A DNA stretch of 64,000 nt from an uncultured Actinomycetes bacterium (lineage in GTDB: Bacteria; Actinomycetota; Thermoleophilia; Gaiellales; Gaiellaceae), in NCBI GenBank assembly GCA_963719325.1, contig CAVRBW010000024.1, positions 16,968-80,967 on the forward strand. Direction: 5' to 3'. Shown here one piece after another: positions 1,675 to 20,453 of the stretch. Position 1 is the stretch's first letter. Every line of letters starts with the position of its first letter. The translations under genes were made by a program, and so were the position numbers. The notes below the pieces were generated by a model. It was given only the letters and a program-made list of their open reading frames with translations. It ran no database searches and had not been told where the DNA came from.

Positions 1675-3177
1675 TCAAGCCCGATCGAGCAACGGGAGCG
1701 GCACCGGCAGGTTCGCAACGCCCGACCCCGTGGCGTCGACGATCGCGGGCGCCTTCATCGCGCGCACCAACGAGCCCGGGTCGAGACCGCTCGCCGTCGA
1801 GATGTCGGTGCTCTGGAGCAGGATCGCGCCCGGGGTGGGCGCATTGCTCGCCTGTGCGGTTTGGGGGTCGAACGGAACCGCGGGCAGGATGCGGACGTCC
1901 TCGAGCTGCTCCCACGCCTCGAGGTACTTGGTCGGATCGACCGCGCCGTCGTAGCCCAGGAAGAGCATCGCCACGGGGTGAACCTCGAAGTGAAGGTGGA
2001 AGGGCGTGCCCTCCGCGTCGCCGGTATTGCCGACGAAGCCGAGCACGTCGCCTGCCCGCACGTGCCGCCCGTTGACCGCCAGGGTCGTGAAGGCGGAGAG
2101 ATGCGCGTAGTAGAACTCGTTTCCGCCCTGGTCGCGAAGCCACAGGCGATAGCCGCCGACGTCGTTCCGGCCGACGGAGAAGACGGCGCCGTCGGCGACT
2201 GCGAGGATCGGAGCCCCGAGTGGGGCGAAGATGTCGTCGCCGTGATGCCAGCCGCCGGACACGTCGCCGCGCGGGGCGCCGAACGAGTCACCGTAGCCCG
2301 AGGGTCCGTAGACGGGGAAGACGTACCGGTTGCCGGTCAGCTTCGGCGTCACGTTCGGGGGCGCGATCACCAGCGGCCCCGCGCCGAAGAGTTGCGCACT
2401 CGCCGATGCGCCTGCGAGACGCACGGCACCCGCCGCGCCGATGCCGGACGTACGCTTCTGCTCGGGCTCTGTCTTAGGCTGCGCCGGCTTCGGTTTCGCC
2501 GACGTCGTCGTCTGGGTCCTCGTCCCTGGCGGCTGCGGCGGGCTCGCGAACGCATCCGCGAAGCCGACCCGAATCTCGGCCCCTGCGGGTAGGCCGCCGT
2601 GGTCGGTGTCGAGGTGGACGACGAGGGCGGTGACGGTGCCCCGCCAGGACGGCGACGAGGCGTCGCCCTCGCTCGTCGTCTGGCCGAGCAGAAGCGCGTA
2701 GCCCCAGTCTGCGAGCGGCACCTTCGTGTTCGGAACGATGTCGGCGACGGCTTGGCCGAGGAGAACGAGACCCGTGACCGTCGAGTCAGACACGTCGCCG
2801 ACGGTTCCAGCCGAGCTCACGGATGTGTGCACCTGCGCGGCCGTGATCTCCCCGCCGAAGAGCGACAGATTGGTCGCCTCGCTGACCGCCTCCGCAGTCC
2901 CGTCCTGGGCGCTCGCCGATACGGTCGCCGAGGCCGATTCAGCCGAGACGATCGAGCCGTCCTCGGGGTAGAGGAAGGGTGCCGGAGCGGGCTCCGCCTC
3001 CGGTGGCGCAGCGACCTCGGCCGTGGAGGCGACTAACGACTGATCGGCGGCGACGATCTCGACGGCAAACCCCTGCGCAGTGGGCATCGGCGGGGAGAGC
3101 GGCGGGGTGGCCGACGCTGCACCGTCGAGAAGGCCGAGACAGGCAAGGGCGGCCGCCGCAAACAAACGTGCCGTCAC
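1675..3177 (-). CDS. M23-family metallopeptidase (secreted)
   Basis: Signal peptide MTARLFAAAALACLGLLDGAASA. C-terminal LytM/M23 motifs HHGDDIFAPLGAPILAVADG and GNTGDAEGTPFHLHFEVH. Confidence 0.8.
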   Translation of the reverse strand: MTARLFAAAALACLGLLDGAASATPPLSPPMPTAQGFAVEIVAADQSLVASTAEVAAPPEAEPAPAPFLYPEDGSIVSAESASATVSASAQDGTAEAVSEATNLSLFGGEITAAQVHTSVSSAGTVGDVSDSTVTGLVLLGQAVADIVPNTKVPLADWGYALLLGQTTSEGDASSPSWRGTVTALVVHLDTDHGGLPAGAEIRVGFADAFASPPQPPGTRTQTTTSAKPKPAQPKTEPEQKRTSGIGAAGAVRLAGASASAQLFGAGPLVIAPPNVTPKLTGNRYVFPVYGPSGYGDSFGAPRGDVSGGWHHGDDIFAPLGAPILAVADGAVFSVGRNDVGGYRLWLRDQGGNEFYYAHLSAFTTLAVNGRHVRAGDVLGFVGNTGDAEGTPFHLHFEVHPVAMLFLGYDGAVDPTKYLEAWEQLEDVRILPAVPFDPQTAQASNAPTPGAILLQSTDISTASGLDPGSLVRAMKAPAIVDATGSGVANLPVPLPLLDRA

Positions 3178-4388: not shown

Positions 4389-5108
4389 ATGGTCGAGACC
4401 GGGAACGTCCTCGTCCGCTTCGCCGAGCGCCCGGACGAGGCGGCCCTGCTTCTGGACGTCGACGGTACCCTCGCGCCGATCGTCGACCGGCCCGAGCAAG
4501 CGTCGGTTCCCGCCACGACGCGAGACCTGCTGCGCGACCTCGCCGGTCGCTACGCGCTCGTCGCCTGCATCAGCGGCCGCACAGCCGACGAGGTCCGGCG
4601 CCTCGTCGCCGTCGACCAGATCGTTCCGGTCGGCGAGCACGGCCTCGAGCTCGACCCGCGCGCACAACAGTGGGCCTCGGAGATTCACGCGTTCGCAGAC
4701 TCGGTCGACTGGCCGGCAGAGCGCAAGCGGCTGACCGTCTCGTTTCATTTCCGCACGGCCGAGGACGAGGGCGCCGCCGTGGCCGAGCTTCGGCGGATCG
4801 CCAGTCTCGCGCGCGAGGCGGGCCTGCGCCCGCGCTGGGGTCGAAAGGTGCTCGAGATCCGCCCTCCGGTGGACGCTGACAAGGGAACGGCGGTTCGCGC
4901 GCTGCTGACCGAGCGTGGTCTCAGACGGGCTCTCTACGCCGGTGACGACGCGACCGATCTGGATGCGTTCCGCAGCCTCGACGGCCTGGAGGTGGCCGTG
5001 CGAGTCGCCGTCGTCTCCGACGAGGGCCCGAGCGAGCTCGGGTGGGCCGCCGACCTCGTCGTCGGCAGCACCGAGGCCCTCGTCGAGGTGCTGCGGCAGC
5101 TGCTCTGA
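4389..5108 (+). CDS. otsB: trehalose-6-phosphate phosphatase-like HAD hydrolase
   Basis: HAD motif I LLLDVDGTLAPIV; GRKVLEIRPP.VDKGTAV; motif YAGDDATDLDAF. Layout is typical of OtsB. Confidence 0.65.
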   Translation: MVETGNVLVRFAERPDEAALLLDVDGTLAPIVDRPEQASVPATTRDLLRDLAGRYALVACISGRTADEVRRLVAVDQIVPVGEHGLELDPRAQQWASEIHAFADSVDWPAERKRLTVSFHFRTAEDEGAAVAELRRIASLAREAGLRPRWGRKVLEIRPPVDADKGTAVRALLTERGLRRALYAGDDATDLDAFRSLDGLEVAVRVAVVSDEGPSELGWAADLVVGSTEALVEVLRQLL

Positions 5109-5677
5109 TGCATCTCACAGAGCAGGTCCTCGCGCCTGTCCGCGCCCGGTACGGAGACCCGGCGGTGCTCGAGTGGGAGGGGGAGATCAGCGAGGCGGAA
5201 TACGAGCTCGCGACCTACAACCCCGGCCGCGTACACGACGTCACCCTGTTCATCCTCAACCAGGACCGGCTGGCGCTGATCCGGAAGCCGATGTTCCCGC
5301 CCGATGTCTGGCGGCCGCCGGGAGGCGGAGTGAAACCCGGCGAGGACTTCGTGAAGGCAGTCCGACGCGAGGCCCTCGAGGAGACCGGACTGGCGGTCGA
5401 GCTGAGGCGGTACCTCGTCGAGGCCCGCGCCCGGTTCGTGCACGGCTCGTCGGACCTCGACTGGCGAACCCACGTCATGCTCGCCTCGACGGTCGACGCC
5501 GAGCTCGGACCACTCGACACGGACGAGATCGCCGAGGCCCGCTGGGGCACCCTCGACGAGCTGGCCGGCCCCATTCGCGAGCGTCTGCTCGCAACCGGGC
5601 GGGCGTTCTGGCGCTACCGCGTCGCCTTGCACGACGCGACGCTGACCGCGCTCCGCCAAAGGCAGGGACAGTCCTAG
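5108..5677 (+). CDS. NUDIX hydrolase
   Basis: Nudix box GGGVKPGEDFVKAVRREALEETGL. Start chosen at the ATG overlapping the otsB stop (TGATG). Confidence 0.8.
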   Translation: MHLTEQVLAPVRARYGDPAVLEWEGEISEAEYELATYNPGRVHDVTLFILNQDRLALIRKPMFPPDVWRPPGGGVKPGEDFVKAVRREALEETGLAVELRRYLVEARARFVHGSSDLDWRTHVMLASTVDAELGPLDTDEIAEARWGTLDELAGPIRERLLATGRAFWRYRVALHDATLTALRQRQGQS

Positions 5678-5707
5678 GTTGTCCTGGACCTGGCTCGGGC
5701 CCACAGC

Positions 5708-7006
5708 TCAGCCGGCTGCCGCACGAAGGACGTCCCAGGCGCGGCGCACGTCGCCCTCGGTCGTCCGTTCGCTCCCGATTGCGAGCCGGAGCACGTACCG
5801 GTCGTCCAGCCGGGTGTGGGAGAGGAAGATCTCGCCGGAGGCGTTGACACGCTCGAGCAGCGCTTCGTTCTCCTCGTCGGGGCCCTGGCGTCTGAAGCAC
5901 ACGACCGAGAACGGCCGCGGAGCGCACAGCTCCCAGCCAGGCTCGTCGCGCACCCAGCCCTCGAAGAGCTCACCCAGACGGATAGCCTCGCGAATCCTGA
6001 GCTGGAGCCCTTCGCGCCCGTAACAGCGCAGTACCGCCCAGAGCTTCAGCGAGCGGAAGCGGCGCCCGAGCGCAGGGCCGTACTCGCTGATGTTGAAAGC
6101 GTCCTCGTCGGTCGTGCGCAGGTACTCGGGGATGAGCGAGAACGCCTCGCGGAAGTCCGCCGGGCGGCTCGTCCAGAGGAGCGAGCAGTCCATCGGCGTG
6201 AACATCCACTTGTGCGCGTTGACGACCAGCGAGCCGGCGCGATCGACCCCCTCGAACGCCCAGCGCAGCTCCGGGCACACCATCGCCGAACCCGCGTACG
6301 CCGCGTCGACGTGCAGCCAGGCTCCCGCCTCGGCACAGCGATCGGCGATCGCCGGGACCGGGTCGACGGAGGTGGACGAGGTCGTTCCGACCGTCGCCAC
6401 CACAACGGCGACGTCGTCCAGCTCCAGCGTCTCGGGCCGCATCCGGAAGGCCCCGTCCGCCGGAGCCTTGCGCAGCTCCATCCCGAGGATGCGAGCGCCC
6501 TTCTCGACAGAGGAGTGCGCGTGCTCGGAGCACACGACGACGTTGCGGCCCGTGGCCTGGCGTGCAGCGGCGAGCGCCGCGAGCGTCGACGTCGAGGCCG
6601 TGTCCTCGATGTGCCCGTGCCAGCCGGATGGCAGGCCGATCAGCTGGGCGACCCAGTCCAGCACCGTCACTTCGAGCTCGGTCGAGGCCGGAGCAGTGCG
6701 CCACAAGACGGCGACCGAGTTCAGCGTCGCCGCGAGAAGCTCGGCGAGGATTCCCGGCTCGGAGCCCGAGACCGCGAAGTAGGCGAAGAATCGCGGGTGC
6801 TGCCAGTGGGTGATCCCGGGGAGCAGGATCTCGTCCAGATCGCGCAAGATCGCCTCGAACGGCTCGCCGTGCTCCGGCGGCGCGGCCGGGAGCCGCGCTC
6901 GAATCTCTCCCGGCTTGACGTTCGCGAGCACAGGCAGGTCGCCGACCCGTTCGAGGTAGTCGGCCGCCCAGTCGACGGCCGCGTACCCGTCGTCGCGAAA
7001 GCTCAT
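5708..7006 (-). CDS. PLP-dependent group II decarboxylase (aromatic-L-amino-acid / tyrosine decarboxylase family)
   Basis: Matches the DDC family along its length: HWQHPRFFAYF, HVDAAYAGSA, and the PLP-lysine motif NAHKW. Start taken at MSFRDDGY (internal M of the 474-aa ORF). Confidence 0.8.
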   Translation of the reverse strand: MSFRDDGYAAVDWAADYLERVGDLPVLANVKPGEIRARLPAAPPEHGEPFEAILRDLDEILLPGITHWQHPRFFAYFAVSGSEPGILAELLAATLNSVAVLWRTAPASTELEVTVLDWVAQLIGLPSGWHGHIEDTASTSTLAALAAARQATGRNVVVCSEHAHSSVEKGARILGMELRKAPADGAFRMRPETLELDDVAVVVATVGTTSSTSVDPVPAIADRCAEAGAWLHVDAAYAGSAMVCPELRWAFEGVDRAGSLVVNAHKWMFTPMDCSLLWTSRPADFREAFSLIPEYLRTTDEDAFNISEYGPALGRRFRSLKLWAVLRCYGREGLQLRIREAIRLGELFEGWVRDEPGWELCAPRPFSVVCFRRQGPDEENEALLERVNASGEIFLSHTRLDDRYVLRLAIGSERTTEGDVRRAWDVLRAAAG

Positions 7007-11956: not shown

Positions 11957-14194
11957 GTGGCAGTGGGCGCGGCGACGTGGGACGGCATTCTCGCCGGAGA
12001 GGAGCTCGCGTACCTGACCGACGAGGCGGCCCGTGAGGCCCGGACCGCTCCGTTCCCGGACGACGTGCACCCGAAGGTGCGTGCGGCGCTGGAGGCGCGC
12101 GGCGTCGATCGGCTCTACGAGCATCAGGCGGAGGCCTGGGACCTCGCGGCGCGCGGCAAGCACGTTGCCGTCGTCACCGGCACCGCGAGCGGCAAGTCGC
12201 TGGCGTTCAACCTCCCCGTCCTCGACGCCCTCGCCCGTGAGCCGAAGCGGCGTGCGATCTACCTCTATCCGACCAAGGCGCTCGCTCAGGATCAGCTGCG
12301 CTCGATCGCCGCGCTGCAGCCCCCCCGCGTCCGCGCCGCGATCTACGACGGCGACACGGAGGTCGAACGCCGCTGGCAGATCCGCAAGTGGTCGAACCTC
12401 ATCCTCTCGAACCCGGACATGCTCCACGTCGGCGTGCTGCCGCACCACGACCGCTGGGGCGACGTGCTCACCAACCTCGCCTACGTCGTCGTCGACGAGG
12501 CGCACGTCTACCGCGGCGTCTTCGGCTCGCACGTCGGAAACGTCCTGCGACGACTGCGCAGGGTCGCCCGGATCTACGGTGCCGACCCGCAGTTCCTCCT
12601 CGCCTCCGCCACGATCGCGAACCCCGGTGACCTCGCCCGATCGCTGCTCGGGCTCGACGTCACCGTGATCGGCGACGACGCGGCGCCACGCGCGGAGCGG
12701 ACGATCGCGCTCTGGAACCCGCCGCTGGTCGACGAAGAGCTCGGCCTGCGCGCGAGTGCCCTCGGCGAGGCGTCACGGCTGATGGCCGAGCTCGTCTCGC
12801 GCGGGCTGCGGACGCTGTGCTTCGCGAAGAGCCGGAAGTCGGCCGAGCTGATTCACCGCTTCACGGCCGACCGCCTCGGCCGTGAGTACCGCACCCGGCT
12901 CTCGCCGTACCGAGCCGGCTACACGCCCGCCCAGCGACGCGAGATCGAGCAGCGACTCGCCGCCGGGGAGCTCCTCGGCGTGGCCGCCACGGACGCGCTC
13001 GAGCTCGGCATCGACATCGGCCTGCTCGATTGCGTGATCTCGACCGGATTCCCGGGCACGATCGCGAGCCTCCGCCAGCAGTGGGGACGGGCCGGCCGCC
13101 GCGGCCACGGGCTCGCGGTGCTCGTCGCGAGCGAGGACGCGCTCGACCAGTACTTCATGCGCGAGCCGGAGACGCTGCTGGGTCGGCGAGTGGAGGCGGC
13201 GATTCTCGACCATACGAACCCGCGCGTCCTCGACGGGCACGTGCGAGCAGCCGCGTTCGAGGCGCCGCTCGACGACGCCGACCGTTCGGTGCTCGGCGAT
13301 TCGGCGCTCGAGCGGGCGGCGCTGCTCCCGGAGCTCCGGCAAACGCCGGCCGGCTTCGTCTGGGCGGGCCGCGACTACCCGGCCGCACGCGTCCCGCTGC
13401 GCTCGACCAGCCAGGATTCGTTCTCCGTGATCGACACCACGACGGGCTCGGTGCTCGGCCTCGTCGAACGGGAGCGGGCGTACTCGACGGTCCACGACGG
13501 CGCGGTGTACCTGCACCTCGGGGAGGCCTACCGGGTGACCGCGCTCGACCTGGACGCCCGCCAGGCCCTCGTTTCGCCCTTCGCCGGCGATCTCTACACG
13601 CAGGCCAAGAAGGACACGACCACGGCGATCGACCACGCCGAGCGCACGGAGAAGCGCCTGGGCCTCGAGCTCAACTGGGGTGCCGTGTTCGTCACCGAGC
13701 AGGTCGTCGCGTACCAGCTCAAGAAGGCCTCGACCCAGGAGACCCTCGATCTCGTCGGGCTCGACCTTCCGGAGACGACCTTCGATACCGAGGCGGTCTG
13801 GTTCTGTCCGGAGCCGTGGATGCTCGAGGGGCTCGAGCGCATGCCGAAGCTGCTCAGCAGCCTGCACGCGGCCGAGCACGCCCTGATCGCGCTGCTGCCG
13901 CTCTGGGCGATGTGCGACCGCTGGGACATCGGCGGCCTGTCGACGAACACCCACTTCCAGACGGGGCGCCCGACGATCTTCGTCTACGACGGCCACCCAG
14001 GCGGGGTCGGGATTACGGAACGCGGCTTCGAGGCCTTCGAGGGCTGGGTCGAAGACACGGCGAAGCTGATCGCCGGCTGCCCCTGCGAGAAGGGTTGCCC
14101 ATCGTGCGTTCAGTCCCCCAAGTGCGGCAACCTGAACGACATGCTCGACAAGGCCGGCGCGCTCGACCTGCTCCGACGATTGCTGTCGAGCTAG
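11957..14194 (+). CDS. DEAD/DEAH-box helicase with C-terminal DUF1998 zinc-ribbon (MrfA/YprA-like)
   Basis: Walker A TGTASGKS, DEAH-type VVDEAH, helicase C motifs, and a C-terminal four-Cys motif CPCEKGCPSCVQSPKCGN. GTG start chosen after the upstream stop; the longer 823-aa ORF overlaps the ABM gene. Confidence 0.8.
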   Translation: MAVGAATWDGILAGEELAYLTDEAAREARTAPFPDDVHPKVRAALEARGVDRLYEHQAEAWDLAARGKHVAVVTGTASGKSLAFNLPVLDALAREPKRRAIYLYPTKALAQDQLRSIAALQPPRVRAAIYDGDTEVERRWQIRKWSNLILSNPDMLHVGVLPHHDRWGDVLTNLAYVVVDEAHVYRGVFGSHVGNVLRRLRRVARIYGADPQFLLASATIANPGDLARSLLGLDVTVIGDDAAPRAERTIALWNPPLVDEELGLRASALGEASRLMAELVSRGLRTLCFAKSRKSAELIHRFTADRLGREYRTRLSPYRAGYTPAQRREIEQRLAAGELLGVAATDALELGIDIGLLDCVISTGFPGTIASLRQQWGRAGRRGHGLAVLVASEDALDQYFMREPETLLGRRVEAAILDHTNPRVLDGHVRAAAFEAPLDDADRSVLGDSALERAALLPELRQTPAGFVWAGRDYPAARVPLRSTSQDSFSVIDTTTGSVLGLVERERAYSTVHDGAVYLHLGEAYRVTALDLDARQALVSPFAGDLYTQAKKDTTTAIDHAERTEKRLGLELNWGAVFVTEQVVAYQLKKASTQETLDLVGLDLPETTFDTEAVWFCPEPWMLEGLERMPKLLSSLHAAEHALIALLPLWAMCDRWDIGGLSTNTHFQTGRPTIFVYDGHPGGVGITERGFEAFEGWVEDTAKLIAGCPCEKGCPSCVQSPKCGNLNDMLDKAGALDLLRRLLSS

Positions 14195-14664
14195 CCGAGA
14201 GGCGCAGCGACGACGAGCACGCGGCAGCTCGCCTTCCGCAGCACGTACTGGACCGTTCGCCCGAAGGCCGGCGCCTGCTTGCTCGACCGCCGGCGGCGCC
14301 GGGCACCGACCACGATCAGCTCGAACTCGTCCGCATCCAGTTGCTCGACGATCGCCACGGCGGCGTCACGCGCCCGCACGCTGTGCGCAACGACCGCCAC
14401 GCCGTACGCATCCGCGAGCGACTCCGCTCGCGCGAGCAGCCTGCGCGCGTCTTCCTCCTCGTCCTTCATGTGCGCGTCCAGGGGAAGCAGAGACGGAATC
14501 TCGATCACCGCCAGCGCGGTGATGGAGGCGTGGCGCTCGGCCGCCAGCTTGCAGGCAGCCCCCATCGCCCGCTCCGACTGGGGGTCGTCGACCATCGGCA
14601 CGAGCAGCTTGCGATAGCCCCGATCGACGTGCGCGACCCGGCGGGGAAGCGCGCGCGCGGCCAT
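14191..14664 (-). CDS. universal stress protein (UspA family)
   Basis: 157 aa; KLLVPMVDDPQSERAM ... ELIVVGARRR ... GRTVQYVLRKASCRVLVV. Typical Usp ATP-binding-type C-terminus. Confidence 0.75.
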   Translation of the reverse strand: MAARALPRRVAHVDRGYRKLLVPMVDDPQSERAMGAACKLAAERHASITALAVIEIPSLLPLDAHMKDEEEDARRLLARAESLADAYGVAVVAHSVRARDAAVAIVEQLDADEFELIVVGARRRRRSSKQAPAFGRTVQYVLRKASCRVLVVAAPLG

Positions 14665-14699
14665 GCCTCCACGCTAGAGCGCACCCCGCGAAGCGGCCC

Positions 14700-14737
14700 T
14701 TAAGGTACCGCGGTGACGTCTCAAGACGGTCTTAAGA
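14700..14737. promoter_or_regulatory. candidate OmpR/KdpE-type operator upstream of the usp gene
   Basis: TTAAGG (14700), TCAAGA (14721) and TTAAGA (14732). The last two hexamers are 11 bp apart (6-5-6 layout). Shares the 11-mer ACGTCTCAAGA with the site at 16794-16804. Lies 36-73 nt upstream of the usp start and overlaps the kdpE stop. Confidence 0.45.
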
Positions 14738-15421
14738 CGTCTGTGGATTGACGAGGCGGTACCCGACCCCGGGCTGGTTGAGGAGGTACCGCGGCCGGGC
14801 GGGGTCGGGCTCGATCTTCCGGCGGAGCTGGGAGACGTAGACGTGTAGGTAGTTGGACTCGCCGCCGTAGGCCGGACCCCAGATCTCTCGGAGAATCGCC
14901 GGGTGCGTGAGCAGCTTGCCCTCGTTGCGGGCCATCAGTCCGAGTAGCGCATATTCGATCGGGGTCAGCGAGATCGGATCGCCTGCCATCGTCACCGTCC
15001 GCTTCTCGAGGTCGATCTTCAGCTCCCCGATCTCGAGCACGGGACGGCCGGAAGGCACCGTCCGCCGGAGCACCGCCCGAAGGCGCGCGAGCAGCTCGTC
15101 GCCGCTGAAAGGCTTCGTGACGTAGTCGTCGGCGCCGGCGTCCAGCGCCGCGATCTTCTCCCGTTCGTCTCCGACGGCCGAGAGAACGACGATCGGAGCC
15201 GAGCTCCAGGTCCGGAGCTCGCGACAGACGTCGGTGCCGTCGCCGTCGGGAAGGACGAGATCGAGGATGACCGCCGCCGGCGGGCGCATCGCCGCTCTGG
15301 CCACGGCGTCCTGGGCGGTCGCAGCCGTCTCGACGGCGTAACCCGCTGTCCGCAGTTTCATCTGCACCGCCCGGAGGATCTGCGGCTCGTCGTCGACGAC
15401 GAGAATCCTCGCCCTGCTCAT
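14732..15421 (-). CDS. kdpE: OmpR-family response regulator, KdpE type
   Basis: Receiver domain ILVVDDEPQI...LDLVLPDGDG. The winged-helix region LLTHPAILREIWGPAYGGESNYLHVYVSQLRRKIEPDPARPRYLLNQPGVGYRL closely follows the KdpE pattern. Confidence 0.8.
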   Translation of the reverse strand: MSRARILVVDDEPQILRAVQMKLRTAGYAVETAATAQDAVARAAMRPPAAVILDLVLPDGDGTDVCRELRTWSSAPIVVLSAVGDEREKIAALDAGADDYVTKPFSGDELLARLRAVLRRTVPSGRPVLEIGELKIDLEKRTVTMAGDPISLTPIEYALLGLMARNEGKLLTHPAILREIWGPAYGGESNYLHVYVSQLRRKIEPDPARPRYLLNQPGVGYRLVNPQTS

Positions 15422-16755
15422 ACGCTCACCGGAATCGGGGCCGCGGGCAGCGCGAGCGCAAACACCGCGCCTCTCCCCGGCTCGGAATCGACCCACAGAC
15501 GGCCCGCATTCACCTGTGCGAATCCGCGCGCAATCGCCAGCCCGAGTCCAGAGCCGCGCTCGCCGCCGCCCGTGCCTTGCCGGAACGGCGCGAAGATCAT
15601 CTCCTGCTCGTCCCGGGCGATCCCCGGCCCGCGATCGACGACGCGTACGACGACGTCTCCGTTCGCCGGCTCGGCTCGAATCTCGACCGGGTCGGCCGGC
15701 GACGAGTGCTGAAGGGCGTTCTCCAGCAGGTTGACGAGGACCCGTTCGAGCTGCGCAGCGTCGACGCGGACTGTCAGAGGCTCCTCCGGCAGGACGACGA
15801 CCACTCGATTGCTGTCCGGGCCGATCGCCTCGAGCGCCTGAGCGACGAGCCCGTCGACGGCCCAGAGCTCGAAGACCGGAGCGGCGGCGTCGGCCTCGAG
15901 ACGCGACAGGTCGAGCAGGTTTCCGACCAACCGATCGAGCCGCCGCGTCTCCGCATGGATGGAGGCGAGCAGCTCCTCACGGTCGGCGACCGAGAGCGCT
16001 TCCTCCGGCACGGAGAGGAGCTCGCTCGCCGTGCTGATCGCCGTCAGCGGGGAGCGCAGGTCGTGACTGACCGACCGCAACACCGCAGTCTTCACGACGT
16101 CGCTGCGACTCAGCTCCTCTCGCTCGATCGCCGTCGCGAGCAAGAACGCGAGGCCCGCCACTACCCGACGCGTGACTGCAGGATCAGGGCGGCCGTCGAG
16201 AAAGAGCCGCCCGACGTATCGAGCCCCTGCGCGAAGATCGTGCGCCTGCTCGTCGGGATCCGGCTCACGAGCGTCCCCGAGCTCGACCCAGCAGTGAGAC
16301 ACACGGAGGAGGTCGGCCGCCCGGATCGCGATCTCGCCGAGCAGCGGCGCGACCTGGGGCCGCTCGAGCAGCATCGCGGACACCTCGGCGGCAAAGGCAG
16401 CCTCGCGGCGTTGCTGCTCCGCCTCGGCGGCCCGCCGGCGCGCCCGCGTCGCCAGGCCGCTCACGCTGACGGCACTGACGAGGTACACGGCCAAGGCAAC
16501 CCAGTTCTCGGACTCTGAAAGGTGGAACGTGTGCCGGGGGGGCAGGAAGAGCCAGTTGAACGCGAGCATGCTGACAACCGAGACGGCGGTGGCAAAGGGC
16601 AATCCCCACAGCGCCGCGACCGGTAGCACCGCGAACAGGTAGAGCACGCCGAGGCTGAGCACGGGAGCGACCGGCCGGAGCGCGTACACGGCACCCGAGA
16701 CGACCGCGACCGCGGCCAGGCTCGCCAGCGACGCGACCACGACTCGAGCGTTCAT
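15418..16755 (-). CDS. sensor histidine kinase, KdpD C-terminal type (membrane DUF4118 + GAF-like + HisKA + HATPase), lacking the N-terminal KdpD/Usp sensor module
   Basis: Begins directly with 4 TM helices. H-box VLRSVSHDLRSPLTAI; N, G1 and G2 boxes (LVNLLENALQHS, DRGPGI, GSGLGLAI). Overlaps the kdpE start. Confidence 0.8.
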   Translation of the reverse strand: MNARVVVASLASLAAVAVVSGAVYALRPVAPVLSLGVLYLFAVLPVAALWGLPFATAVSVVSMLAFNWLFLPPRHTFHLSESENWVALAVYLVSAVSVSGLATRARRRAAEAEQQRREAAFAAEVSAMLLERPQVAPLLGEIAIRAADLLRVSHCWVELGDAREPDPDEQAHDLRAGARYVGRLFLDGRPDPAVTRRVVAGLAFLLATAIEREELSRSDVVKTAVLRSVSHDLRSPLTAISTASELLSVPEEALSVADREELLASIHAETRRLDRLVGNLLDLSRLEADAAAPVFELWAVDGLVAQALEAIGPDSNRVVVVLPEEPLTVRVDAAQLERVLVNLLENALQHSSPADPVEIRAEPANGDVVVRVVDRGPGIARDEQEMIFAPFRQGTGGGERGSGLGLAIARGFAQVNAGRLWVDSEPGRGAVFALALPAAPIPVSV

Positions 16756-16787
16756 GGCCAGAGCATAGGCCTGCGGGCGAGCTCGGC

Positions 16788-16804
16788 TTAAGAACGTCTC
16801 AAGA
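16788..16804. promoter_or_regulatory. candidate OmpR/KdpE-type operator in the divergent kdpD-like / kimA-like intergenic region
   Basis: TTAAGA-ACGTC-TCAAGA: direct hexamer repeat with 11-bp spacing, AT-rich against a GC-rich background. Lies 33 nt from the kdpD-like ATG and 55 nt from the kimA-like GTG. Confidence 0.45.
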
Positions 16805-16858
16805 TCGCGGCGGGAGCTTCTGGCACCGAATCGGCGCCACTAGCGTGACGCCCGGGAG

Positions 16859-19174
16859 GTGTCGAACCTGGGTGGTATTCACGAACCGCCGCTGCGGGCG
16901 GCACATGCGGAGCGGCCGGACCGGATCGAGGCCCTCAAGCGTGCCCTGATCGGTCGGCCCCGGTCGGGGACGGAGATGGACGAGACGCTCCTCTCGAAGA
17001 AGCTCGCGCTGCCGGTCTTCGCGTCGGACCCCCTCTCGTCGGTGGCGTACGCGACCGAGTCGGGCCTCGTCGTCCTCGTTGCCGCCTCGGCGGCCGCCGC
17101 CAGCCGCATCCTCCCGATCTCGTTCGTGATTGCGGCCCTGCTCGCGATCGTCATCCTCTCGTATCGCCAGACGGTGCGTGCGTACGAGACGAGCGGCGGC
17201 GCCTACGTCGTCGCCAAGGACAACCTGGGAACGCTGCCGAGCCTGATCGCCGCCGCCGCCCTCCTCGTCGACTACATCCTCACCGTCGCGGTCTCAGTCG
17301 CCGCCGGGATCCTTGCAATCACGTCGCTGGCACCCTCGGTCGCGTCGCACAAGGTCGCTCTCTGCCTCGCCGCGGTGGCGTTGCTCACGGTCGTCAACCT
17401 GCGCGGCGTCCGAGAGTCCGGAATCGCCTTCGCGCTTCCGACCTACTCGTTCGTGGTCGCGATGTACGTGATGGTCGCGTTCGGAGTCGGCAAGTGCGTC
17501 GCAGGGAGCTGCGCGCAAGCGGTGGTTCCCGATCCAGTCGCGATGGGCTCCGGCGCGATCGGCGTGTTCCTGCTCGTTCGGACTTTCGCATCCGGAGCCG
17601 TCGCGCTGACGGGCGTCGAAGCGATCTCGAACGGCGTGGGGGCATTCCGACCCCCGAAGGGACGGAACGCGGCCACGACGCTCGGGGTGCTCGGGGCCAT
17701 CTCGATCACGCTGTTCCTCGGGGTCTCCTACCTCACCGTGCGGATGCACGCGCGCCCGAGCGACACCGTCTCGCTCGTGTCCGAGATCGCGCGGGCGACC
17801 TTCCCGGCGGGCTCGCCCGGCTCGTTCATGTACTACGCCGTCCAGATTCTCACCTTCGCGATCCTGGTCCTCGCGGCGAACACCTCCTACCAGGGCTTCC
17901 CGCGCCTGGCCGCCGTGCTCGCCCAGGATCGGTTCTTCCCGCGCCAGTTCGTCAATCTCGGCGACCGCCTCGTCTACTCGAATGGAATCATCGTCCTCGC
18001 CGGCCTGGCGTCGCTCCTGATCTGGATCTTCGACGCCGACGTGATCGCGCTGATCCACCTCTACGTCGTCGGGGTCTTCACCGCCTTCACGCTCTCGCAA
18101 GCCGGCATGGTCCGCTACTGGCGCCGCTACAAGCAGCCCGGCTGGCGACGCCGGGCGGCGATCAACGGCGTCGGCGGGGTCACGACGGGCGTCGTCACGC
18201 TGCTCGTCATCCAGGCGAAGTTCCTTGCCGGCGCGTGGATGGTGACGATCGCGGTGCCGACCCTGATCGGAGTCTTCTTCCTGATCAACCGCCACTACCG
18301 CAAGGTCGCGCGCCGCCTGCGCGCCGGGGTCGCCGCCGTCGTCGCCGCTCCGCCGGCGACCAACCAGGTCGTCCTGTACGTCGAGTCGTTCGACACCGCT
18401 CTGCGCGAGGCGGTCTGGTACGCCCGCCAGATCGCCGGCCACGACTTCCGGGCGATCCACGTCCCCGGTCCTCATACGGACACCGGAATCCGTCCCCGGT
18501 TCCGTCAGCTGACCGACGTTCGGCCCGACCTGGAGATTGTCAGGCCAGAGGCCGGCCGGGCTGACGCGGTGATCGACTACCTCTGGGCGCTGCCGCGCGG
18601 AGAGTCGAACTTCGTCACCGCAATCATTCCCGAGAGCTTCCGGCGGCCCTCGCTGACGGCGGCGCTCGCGCACCGGATGCAGTTCTCGCTCAAGGTGCGT
18701 CTGCTCGCGGAGCCCGGCGTGGTGATCAGCGACGTACCTGTTCTCGCACGGAGGGCACCCGCGTGGCAGCCGCCCAAGCGCGCAGTCTGTCGCGTACTCG
18801 TCTCCGGGTCGCACGCAGCCTCCATGCGCGCCGTCAACTACGCGAGCGCGCTCGGGCTCCCCGACACGACTGCGCTCTTCTTCGCCTTCGACTCCGACGA
18901 GGTCGAGCGGATCGAGACCGAGTGGGAGCTACGCCCGATGCCGATCCCGCTCGAGGTCGAGCAGGCGCACTTCCGCGACCTCGGCGACCCGCTGCTCCGG
19001 TACCTCCGCCAGATCACGGCAGATCCAGACACGGTCGCGGTCGTGGTCATGCCCGAGCTGATCTTCAGCGGCCCGCAGCGGCTCCTGCACAACCAGCGGG
19101 CCCTCTACATCAAACGGCTGCTTCTGTTCGAGCCACGTGTGATCCTGACCAGCGTTCCCTACCGACTCAGCTGA
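16859..19174 (+). CDS. APC-superfamily permease, KimA-like K+ transporter candidate, with tandem C-terminal cytoplasmic domains
   Basis: The N-terminus LKRALIGRP...LSKKLALPVFASDPLSSVAYATE...ILSYRQTVRAYETSGGAYVVAKDNLG...LLVDYILTVAVSVAAG matches my recollection of the B. subtilis KimA/YdaO N-terminal pattern. About 12 TM, then two related ~110-aa soluble repeats. Confidence 0.7.
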   Translation: MSNLGGIHEPPLRAAHAERPDRIEALKRALIGRPRSGTEMDETLLSKKLALPVFASDPLSSVAYATESGLVVLVAASAAAASRILPISFVIAALLAIVILSYRQTVRAYETSGGAYVVAKDNLGTLPSLIAAAALLVDYILTVAVSVAAGILAITSLAPSVASHKVALCLAAVALLTVVNLRGVRESGIAFALPTYSFVVAMYVMVAFGVGKCVAGSCAQAVVPDPVAMGSGAIGVFLLVRTFASGAVALTGVEAISNGVGAFRPPKGRNAATTLGVLGAISITLFLGVSYLTVRMHARPSDTVSLVSEIARATFPAGSPGSFMYYAVQILTFAILVLAANTSYQGFPRLAAVLAQDRFFPRQFVNLGDRLVYSNGIIVLAGLASLLIWIFDADVIALIHLYVVGVFTAFTLSQAGMVRYWRRYKQPGWRRRAAINGVGGVTTGVVTLLVIQAKFLAGAWMVTIAVPTLIGVFFLINRHYRKVARRLRAGVAAVVAAPPATNQVVLYVESFDTALREAVWYARQIAGHDFRAIHVPGPHTDTGIRPRFRQLTDVRPDLEIVRPEAGRADAVIDYLWALPRGESNFVTAIIPESFRRPSLTAALAHRMQFSLKVRLLAEPGVVISDVPVLARRAPAWQPPKRAVCRVLVSGSHAASMRAVNYASALGLPDTTALFFAFDSDEVERIETEWELRPMPIPLEVEQAHFRDLGDPLLRYLRQITADPDTVAVVVMPELIFSGPQRLLHNQRALYIKRLLLFEPRVILTSVPYRLS

Positions 19175-19190
19175 CCCCGCATGGCACCGT

Positions 19191-20453
19191 ATGGGCGTGA
19201 ACCGCGAGGCGCGAGGAGGAACACTGATCGCCGGCGGCGGCTATGCCGGCTCGATGGTGGCACGGCTGCTCGGCCGCCGCGGCGCGACGATCGTCAGCCC
19301 CGAGAACTTCATGCTCTTCACGCCCCTGCTTCCGGAGGCCGCGTCGGGAACACTCGAGCCGCGGCATGTCGTCGTCCCCCTGAGGTTGATGTGCCCGCAC
19401 GCCGAGCTCGTCCTCGGACGGATGACCGGCCTGGACGCCGAGCGCAAGGTCGTTACCGTGGATGCGCTCGACGGGCCGATCGAGCTCCGCTACGAGCAGC
19501 TCGTCGTCGCGCTCGGGTCCGTTTCCCGCGTTCTCCCGGTGCCGGGGCTCGCCGAGCACGGGCACGGATTCCGAGACCTCGCGGACGCGATCGCGCTCCG
19601 CAACCACGTGCTTCGCCGGCTCGAGGCCGCCGACGCAGCGTCGACGCCCGAAGTCGCCGCACGCCACCTCGGCTTCGTCTTCGTCGGCGCGGGCTACGCG
19701 GGCGTCGAGGCGCTCGCCGAGCTCTCCGACCTCGTTCGAGATGCGCTGCGCCACTATCCGCGACTCCGTGCCGTACGCCAGCGTTGGGTTCTCGTCGATG
19801 CCGCGCCGAAGATCCTCCCGGAGATTCCATCGCGGCTCGGCGACTACGCGGCCGCGCAGCTCCAGCGCAGGGGCGTCGAGATCCACGTCTCGACGCGACT
19901 CGAATCCGCCGATGCGACCGGCGTGCTGCTCTCGGACGGCAGGCGGATCGAAAGCGGCACGCTCGTCTGGACCGCCGGGGTTCGCGCCAACCCGCTCCTG
20001 GGCGCGCTCGGCCTGCCGCTGGACGACCGCGGCCGCGTCGTCGTCGACGAGCACCTACGCGTCGAAGGCCACGGCGACGTCTGGGCGCTGGGCGACGGCG
20101 CGGCCGTCCCGAACCTGGCGACACCGGGCCGGCGCGACCCACCCACATCGCAGCACGCTCTCCGGCAGGCCCGCCGGCTCGCGCGGAACCTCACGGGCGA
20201 CCCCGCGCCGTACCGGTACCGGATGCTCGGCCAGGTGGCGACGCTCGGCCGCTACAAGGGGATCGCCGACGTCTTCGGACTCCCGCTACGCGGGTTCCGG
20301 GGGTGGTTCGTCACGCGGACGTATCACCTCTACCAACTTCCGCTCCTCTCGCGGAAGCTGCGCGTTCTCGTCGACTGGACCGTGGCGCTCTTCTTCCGGC
20401 GGGACATTGCCGAGCTGGGCCTGCTCGGCCACCCGCGGCGGCTGACGCCGTAA
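19191..20453 (+). CDS. ndh: type II NADH dehydrogenase (NDH-2) / FAD-dependent pyridine nucleotide-disulfide oxidoreductase
   Basis: Two dinucleotide-binding motifs, IAGGGYAG and FVGAGYAGVE. WALGDGAAVPN near the C-terminus. Length 420 aa. Confidence 0.8.
   Translation: MGVNREARGGTLIAGGGYAGSMVARLLGRRGATIVSPENFMLFTPLLPEAASGTLEPRHVVVPLRLMCPHAELVLGRMTGLDAERKVVTVDALDGPIELRYEQLVVALGSVSRVLPVPGLAEHGHGFRDLADAIALRNHVLRRLEAADAASTPEVAARHLGFVFVGAGYAGVEALAELSDLVRDALRHYPRLRAVRQRWVLVDAAPKILPEIPSRLGDYAAAQLQRRGVEIHVSTRLESADATGVLLSDGRRIESGTLVWTAGVRANPLLGALGLPLDDRGRVVVDEHLRVEGHGDVWALGDGAAVPNLATPGRRDPPTSQHALRQARRLARNLTGDPAPYRYRMLGQVATLGRYKGIADVFGLPLRGFRGWFVTRTYHLYQLPLLSRKLRVLVDWTVALFFRRDIAELGLLGHPRRLTP

Follow-up and report, generated by a model that had tools for sequence, protein, structure and literature searches.

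Published accounts of the KdpD/KdpE two-component system, the textbook switch for K+ limitation, treat it almost exclusively as regulating the Kdp pump. For KimA, the described control is by cyclic di-AMP (c-di-AMP), its usual master regulator. Parts of both systems stand side by side in a 64,000-nt stretch of metagenomic DNA (hereafter the window; C24:16968-80967, 69% G+C), in which genes for a short KdpD-type histidine kinase, a KdpE-like response regulator and a small stand-alone Usp lie divergent from the gene for a KimA homologue (Table 1). The host assembly comprises 2.77 Mb on 29 contigs, is 88% complete, and has Gaiellaceae and Thermoleophilia metagenome bins as its closest relatives.

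We favor, with a probability of about 0.6, the reading that the targets of this second, paralogous KdpDE-type system are a KimA-family K+/H+ symporter and a small Usp, and not the Kdp pump. The observations behind it are the identities of the genes, the paralogy of the pair, its conserved linkage to kimA, and a set of conserved boxes. In literature searches on KimA with KdpE, on KimA with two-component systems of Actinobacteria, and on DUF4118 with Kup, there was no account of a KdpDE-type system that controls KimA; a Streptomyces review that lists KimA-like genes makes no such connection. The arrangement is recurrent and apparently undescribed.

The locus resembles the closest known systems in part only. 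In comparison with KdpD/KdpE-kdpFABC systems, the kinase has the same layout of DUF4118, GAF-like, DHp and catalytic domains and the regulator carries a DPARPR signature, but no kdp genes adjoin the pair and its predicted boxes lie upstream of kimA and usp. As in the kdp systems of Synechocystis, Anabaena and Deinococcus, the N-terminal KdpD chain is encoded downstream from the pump in this genome and the histidine kinase is a separate gene; those systems, however, are described only as kdp regulators, whereas here a duplicate of the separate system adjoins kimA. Relative to Bacillus subtilis KimA (YdaO; PDB 6S3K, 8B70), the window protein shares the membrane domain, the K+ site and a homologous cytoplasmic domain, but is 771 aa long rather than 607 aa and has that cytoplasmic domain duplicated in tandem. 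Its gene, unlike that of B. subtilis, has no upstream c-di-AMP riboswitch and adjoins a two-component system.

A KdpDE-type pair beside a KimA homologue

An earlier note on this DNA, made from the letters alone, had named the four genes and had proposed that a KdpDE-type pair is tied to a KimA-like transporter. Pfam searches with hidden Markov models bear out all four gene calls, including the stand-alone usp that follows the regulator gene on the same strand. The likeness of the permease to KimA proved to be extensive. A phmmer search matched it to B. subtilis KimA (PDB 6S3K) with an E value of 2.5e-108 across both the membrane and the C-terminal domains, residues 25-525 aligning with 4-497 and residues 641-769 with 473-604. 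All eight of the K+-coordinating residues listed for KimA (bioRxiv 10.1101/2023.07.05.547876) are kept, namely D57, Y64, D138, T142, S146, T251, E254, and Y402, which correspond in that order to D36, Y43, D117, T121, S125, T230, E233, and Y377. The protein is a homologue of KUP-family K+/H+ symporters, for which transport of this kind is predicted.

Twelve membrane helices are predicted, followed by two tandem cytoplasmic domains (residues 497-640 and 641-771). A profile comparison of these two halves gave a probability of 99.9% (E 1.1e-32), and BLASTP between them reached an E value of 0.094 at best. The cytoplasmic tail (residues 497-771, encoded at 18347-19171 of the window) is, by profile comparison, a tandem duplication of the KimA C-terminal domain.

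A riboswitch upstream of the window kimA can be rejected, as positions 13500-20000 gave no Rfam match at E <= 1 and the whole assembly contained no RF00379. Diadenylate cyclase (DAC, PF02457) was likewise not found in the 88%-complete assembly. In a sample of 61 genomes from the order, this enzyme was found in only five of the 13 near-complete genomes of the same family, but in every genome of two sister families (13 and 12 genomes). Because neither the riboswitch nor the cyclase was found, the Bacillus mode of KimA control is probably unavailable in this genome.

The open reading frame (ORF) of the regulator spans 14732-15496, and because alignment with its paralogue on contig C28 puts the true start at M26, we take the gene to be shorter (Table 1), with an ATG that overlaps the kinase stop codon as ATGA. 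This protein is KdpE-like: it has both a REC and a Trans_reg_C domain, and KdpE (NF007820) is its best NCBIfam match at 222 bits, though below the equivalog cut-off of 325. The kinase likewise has KdpD as its best NCBIfam match, below the equivalog cut-off, and its catalytic core has KdpD (6lgq) as its best sequence match in the PDB. As the earlier note had it, the kinase has neither of the N-terminal domains of KdpD. Pfam finds DUF4118, HisKA and HATPase_c alone, with the four-helix DUF4118 membrane domain (PF13493) at residues 10-114 (1.1e-23), and detects no KdpD-N (PF02702) or Usp domain. The predicted phospho-accepting residue, H231, is invariant across 33 kinase sequences.

An AlphaFold2 model of the kinase, built with 33 relatives in the alignment, has a mean predicted local distance difference test score of 86.7 and consists of four membrane helices, a long connecting helix, a small module at residues 136-187, and then the DHp and catalytic domains. 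The module is modeled as one helix and three strands. Since Pfam GAF_2 or GAF_3 matches appear in six of the 33 aligned relatives (best 4e-8), none of them in the window protein, we label the module as reduced and GAF-like. A Foldseek search of the model against the PDB was dominated by histidine kinase catalytic cores and was uninformative on this point.

The statement that kdpFABC is absent is correct for the window but not for the genome. Every KdpA, KdpC and KdpD-N match in the assembly falls on the 9.15-kb contig C28. Because the kdp genes of that contig have a kinase and regulator of their own next to them, the window pair is a paralogue of the kdp-linked pair, the two regulators being 71% and the two kinases 48% identical. 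In a tree of 86 regulators, the window regulator belongs to a kimA-linked clade of five members (support 100/99); a second kimA-linked clade has eight, and both nest among kdp-linked regulators. On this nesting and the identity to the C28 protein, the window regulator is a descendant of regulators linked to kdp operons.

Conserved linkage and predicted KdpE-type boxes

The partnership between the pair and kimA is widespread among related loci. Among 21 loci encoding relatives of the permease, 15 have the short kinase and the regulator within 3 kb of kimA, in four arrangements: divergent, as in the window (L011, L012, L014, L021, L025); co-directional and upstream (L007, L015-L019, L022, L026); downstream (L013); and between two kimA copies (L020). 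Of the remaining six, L006 retains part of the regulator gene and nothing else of the pair, four (two of them truncated by a contig end) have a divergent usp alone, and one, from a Gammaproteobacteria bin, has neither pair nor usp. Usp homologues adjoin kimA or its kinase/regulator pair at 12 of the 21 loci. In other Actinomycetota families the pair stands beside or between the copies at all 16 paired-kimA loci, a biased sample since these were chosen for gaps of about 2.3 kb. Less selected samples had the pair at four of 12 loci with a single long-type kimA and at none of 12 with the short type (about 610 aa), so that only the long type of about 770 aa was found beside a kinase/regulator pair.

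A link between kimA and the pump also occurs in this group, whose 80 kdp loci have a standard layout of short kinase, regulator, kdpF-A-C-B and kdpD-N. At about 15 of them, kimA directly follows kdpD-N on the same strand, and no box was found in any of these short kdpD-N/kimA gaps. Because a weak usp ORF, overlapping the kdpD-N stop codon and abutting kimA, occupies the gap of about 450 bp in L037, kimA is probably co-operonic with kdp at loci of this type. At three loci (L074, L080, L092) the two systems stand back to back, with kimA-usp-regulator-kinase on one strand and kinase-regulator-kdp on the other.

Alignment by eye of kimA upstream regions brought out CTTAAGA-N4-CTCAAGA, a direct repeat with a TAGCGT hexamer after it. 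The box is conserved upstream of kimA in L006, L008-L012, L014, L021, L024, and L025. A position weight matrix (PWM) was built from nine kimA-promoter sites, and in a scan of both strands of the whole assembly only 10 positions scored above 14. The two best matches are box 1, between the kinase gene and kimA, and box 2, upstream of usp (Table 1). The latter is an exact match to the pattern CTYRAGA-N4-CTYRAGA and overlaps the regulator stop codon. The degenerate pattern gives four strand hits at two sites in the window against 0.30 expected, and no shuffle reached four. The third-best PWM match, at C5:281803 (CTGAAGTAGACCTTGAGAT, score 20.4), lies between ftsQ and ftsZ (L147, about 2785-2910) and is treated as a chance match.

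The second position recurs as well. A box occurs at the same regulator/usp junction in L011, L012, L014, and L025, and right after the regulator stop codon in the co-directional loci L016-L018, L022, and L026. In L008 and L024, which have no adjacent pair, the box between usp and kimA persists. A box of the same family is also found just after the regulator stop codon, upstream of kdpA, in most kdp loci. For comparison, the KdpE site of Mycobacterium smegmatis, which is activating and was mapped by DNase footprinting, reads CCGTAAAGAAACCATCAAGGCC (PMC5401905). The window box has the same 7-4-7 layout and register and matches it at 10 of 12 fixed positions. Because of this match there is good evidence for regarding the repeats as KdpE-type operators, at which binding of such a regulator is predicted.

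Putative -10 hexamers can be assigned to all three transcription units. Box 1 lies 36 nt upstream of that of kimA and, on the other strand, 19 nt upstream of that of the kinase/regulator operon, in the -35 region of the latter promoter. Box 2 lies 42 nt upstream of the one for usp. The kimA hexamer is conserved as TAGCGT or TAGCTT in orthologous promoters, and the kinase hexamer TATGCT recurs in L021 and L025. A scan with the sigma-70 consensus gave no promoter match and a terminator scan gave one terminator-like site, inside the kinase gene and within chance expectation; such consensus scans are uninformative at 69% G+C.

With the pair linked to kimA in four arrangements, boxes at both kimA and usp, and no riboswitch, the association put forward in the earlier note gains considerable substance from sequence comparison. 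It had also been allowed that a kdp operon elsewhere might be the only target of KdpE. The kdp genes on C28 turn out to have a regulator of their own and a different box variant, described below, and this objection does not apply.

Proposed wiring and its rivals

A mechanism can be sketched by analogy with the C-terminal half of Escherichia coli KdpD and with M. smegmatis KdpE. In this scheme, the short kinase would sense K+ scarcity through its membrane and GAF-like parts, autophosphorylate on His231, and pass the phosphate to the regulator. A regulator dimer would then bind the repeat at 16787-16804 and activate kimA and, on the opposite strand, its own kinase/regulator operon. Binding to the repeat at 14719-14736 would activate usp. 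The Kdp pump would remain under its own kinase/regulator circuit encoded on C28, with the KdpD-N/Usp serine-kinase chain available for posttranslational control. The signal, the direction of regulation, and the assignment of each regulator to its box are the parts of this scheme that we infer. Activation of its own operon is probable because box 1 occupies the -35 region of the kinase/regulator promoter.

Several points weigh against this reading. The -10 elements and transcription starts are guesses, and the sigma-70 scan was empty. Among relatives, the box stands anywhere from 11 to about 42 nt away from the putative -10, and because of this variation repression is possible. The half-site CTTAAG is its own reverse complement, which makes the orientation of the box ambiguous, and since the PWM was derived from kimA promoters its matches at those promoters are circular, so that only new positions count as independent. 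The absence of the cyclase is unproven in an assembly that is only 88% complete, though the enzyme was also not found in eight of the 13 near-complete genomes of the family.

The same wiring could serve another logic, in which the kinase senses a cue other than K+ (pH, turgor, ionic strength or membrane state) or the regulator acts as a repressor. The kinase is missing both the KdpD-N and the Usp domain and retains of the GAF-like module no more than a helix and three strands, KimA is proton-coupled and pH would therefore be a sensible input, and the presence of two paralogous sensors in the genome points to inputs or thresholds that differ; the variable spacing noted above would suit a repressor. 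The membrane/GAF/kinase chain, however, is just where Silberberg et al. (2024; PMC11018627) place the parts of KdpD that sense K+. The box is similar to a KdpE site with an activating role, and its positions are typical of OmpR-family activators: within the -35 region at the kinase promoter, and about 36-42 nt ahead of the -10 elements of kimA and usp. We consider this logic unlikely, although it deserves to be kept in mind. Much less probable still is that the pair regulates only itself or engages in cross-talk with the kdp operon, its adjacency to kimA having no regulatory meaning. Box 1 does lie in the -35 region of the pair's own promoter, and with regulators that are 71% identical, cross-binding is conceivable. 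Yet boxes persist between usp and kimA where the pair is not adjacent (L008, L024), the linkage survives four arrangements and occurs in distant families, and no box of the window type scores above 13 on the kdp contig.

A different role was suggested for Usp in the earlier note, which saw in it a detached sensor domain of a split KdpD, forming one sensing module with the short kinase. The position of usp after the regulator gene on the same strand fits this idea, as does the background that KdpD is bound by UspC in E. coli and that in Staphylococcus aureus its Usp domain binds c-di-AMP. The genuine KdpD-N/Usp chain, however, is a 362-aa protein encoded after kdpB in the kdp operon on C28, and the window Usp shows no meaningful similarity to the Usp-containing ORF of that contig (E 0.10). 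Because of both results, we reject the window Usp as the missing sensor domain of KdpD, and this part of the note does not stand. Moreover, the window usp has its own predicted KdpE-type box and -10 element, stays with kimA in L008 and L024, where no kinase gene occurs in the available sequence, and lies between kdpD-N and kimA in L037. A sensor function for Usp is thus very improbable. Usp, having its own box, instead has the look of a regulated target, and its association with kimA is conserved. That it keeps to kimA so constantly, within kdp operons as well, points either to a stress protein induced along with kimA or to a protein that interacts directly with the duplicated cytoplasmic domains of KimA.

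Control of KimA by the paralogous pair, if true, would give a large group of uncultured soil Actinomycetota a broader KdpE regulon than has been assumed, and would explain how K+ uptake is regulated where c-di-AMP signaling is missing. The locus adds an operator that is defined and linked to a footprinted KdpE box, a predicted second target in usp, and two co-resident circuits that are apparently insulated from each other.

Paralogous circuits and further features

The evidence for insulation comes from the regulators and their boxes taken together. In the 86-regulator tree, the C28 regulator falls into a kdp clade of 30 members (support 100/99), which share a recognition helix of the form NLL(H/Q/R)V(N/H) and, where a box was detected, the half-site CTGAAG. 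The remaining clades, every kimA-linked one among them, have xYLHV(Y/F/H) and the half-site CT(T/C/A)AAG. The helix of the window regulator is NYLHVYVSQLRRK; at the aligned positions it reads NYLHVY as against NLLQVH in the kdp-linked copy, and the corresponding boxes are CTYAAG and CTGAAG. The C28 box, CTGAAGGAAACGTGAAGC, lies in the kdp promoter on the reverse strand at about 2291-2308 and is of the variant form CTGAAG...GTGAAG. No Y-type box scoring above 13 was found anywhere on that contig. The third base of the half-site and two positions of the helix thus distinguish the two co-resident regulator/box pairs. Because the kdp promoter has a box variant and its regulator a changed helix, the two circuits have probably become insulated from each other after duplication.

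In bins with a single pair and a Y-type helix (for example L027 with L010; L031 with L024, the latter two on one contig), Y-type boxes are present at both kdp and kimA/usp, and because of this an ancestral single regulon is suggested. We tentatively propose, at somewhat less than even odds, that an ancestral Gaiellales KdpE regulon comprising the Kdp pump, KimA and Usp was duplicated into two insulated circuits. The kimA/usp copy would have kept the CTYAAGA-N4-CTCAAGA box and the xYLHVY helix, and the kdp copy would have moved to CTGAAG via two helix changes (Tyr to Leu, and Tyr to Asn or His); Usp may also act directly on the duplicated cytoplasmic domains of KimA. It counts against the helix-box link that it comes from a single clade, hence one evolutionary event, which makes the correlation descriptive only. 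If true, the proposal would describe a natural case of paralogue insulation at the DNA-reading step, in a lineage often without c-di-AMP, and the two co-resident pairs would offer a clean example of how duplicated two-component systems avoid cross-talk.

Table 1. Genes, predicted boxes and putative -10 elements of the window locus, and genes of the kdp contig
Feature	Position	Strand	Basis or remark
usp, stand-alone Usp, 157 aa	14191-14664	-	Pfam Usp (PF00582) 4.2e-20, residues 17-152
Putative usp -10 TAGCGT, leaderless-type	14671-14676	-	6 nt before ATG; inferred
Predicted KdpE-type box 2, CTTAAGACCGTCTTGAGA	14719-14736	-	Second-best genome PWM match, score 23.9 (match span 14718-14736)
KdpE-like OmpR-family response regulator, 229 aa from M26	14732-15421	-	Pfam Response_reg, Trans_reg_C
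Short KdpD-type histidine kinase, 445 aa, predicted phospho-accepting His231	15418-16755	-	Pfam DUF4118, HisKA, HATPase_c
Putative kinase/regulator operon -10 TATGCT	16762-16767	-	6 nt before ATG; inferred
Predicted KdpE-type box 1, CTTAAGAACGTCTCAAGA	16787-16804	+	Top genome PWM match, score 34.2
Putative kimA -10 TAGCGT	16841-16846	+	12 nt before GTG
kimA homologue, 771 aa, GTG start	16859-19174	+	Pfam AA_permease_2; PDB 6S3K match
Short DUF4118 kinase	C28:237-1595		
KdpE-like regulator	C28:1592-2284		
kdpF-like small ORFs	C28: about 2360-2560		Read by eye
kdpA	C28:2664-4352		
kdpC	C28:4373-4927 (about)		
kdpB	C28: about 4936-7002		
Stand-alone KdpD-N/Usp protein, 362 aa	C28:7007-8095		PF02702 4.5e-89; weak Usp 231-344
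Usp-containing ORF	C28:8082-9083		

The genes that flank the window locus encode an MrfA-type helicase and an NDH-2-like oxidoreductase, both unrelated. On C28, the gene order is kdpF-kdpA-kdpC-kdpB rather than the textbook kdpFABC, with kdpC between kdpA and kdpB, and a kdpA-kdpB gap of about 590 bp recurs in all 80 related kdp loci (L027-L106). By its gene content, the C28 locus is a textbook example of the split-KdpD class, in which the KdpD/Usp serine-kinase chain is encoded downstream from the pump and the membrane/GAF/kinase chain, argued to carry the K+-sensing parts of KdpD, is a separate gene (Silberberg et al. 2024; PMC11018627). A second copy of the promoter and initial 48 codons of the kinase gene linked to kdp is present in the assembly, as C17:89399-89603 duplicates C28:172-376 (206 bp, 98.5% identity). 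There the kinase frame breaks off and is followed by an AbrB/MazE-like small ORF; this could be a rearrangement scar, strain variation in the bin, or an assembly join.

In the co-directional loci (L016:5378-5974; L017-L019, L022, L026), the regulator gene and kimA are separated by a conserved ORF of about 198 aa. It has no Pfam match, apparently encodes two membrane helices, and has a stop codon that overlaps the kimA start as GTGA. Frameshifts break many genes in L021, L025, L026, L092, and other bins labeled MFD into several tblastn pieces; they look more like indels from sequencing or assembly than like pseudogenes, and these rows were left out of the protein alignments.

The window Usp has, by eye, a degenerate form of the ATP motif G-x2-G-x9-G-S/T, reading G120-A-R-R...G134-R-T, with the second Gly replaced by Arg and the spacing off by one. 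Several relatives have, downstream from kimA, repeated pairs in which a distant APC permease with 23-26% identity to KimA precedes a Usp gene (L017:4239-8106, L018:6721-10594, L019:8408-12294, L026:9672-12125), which points to a wider partnership between permeases and Usp proteins.

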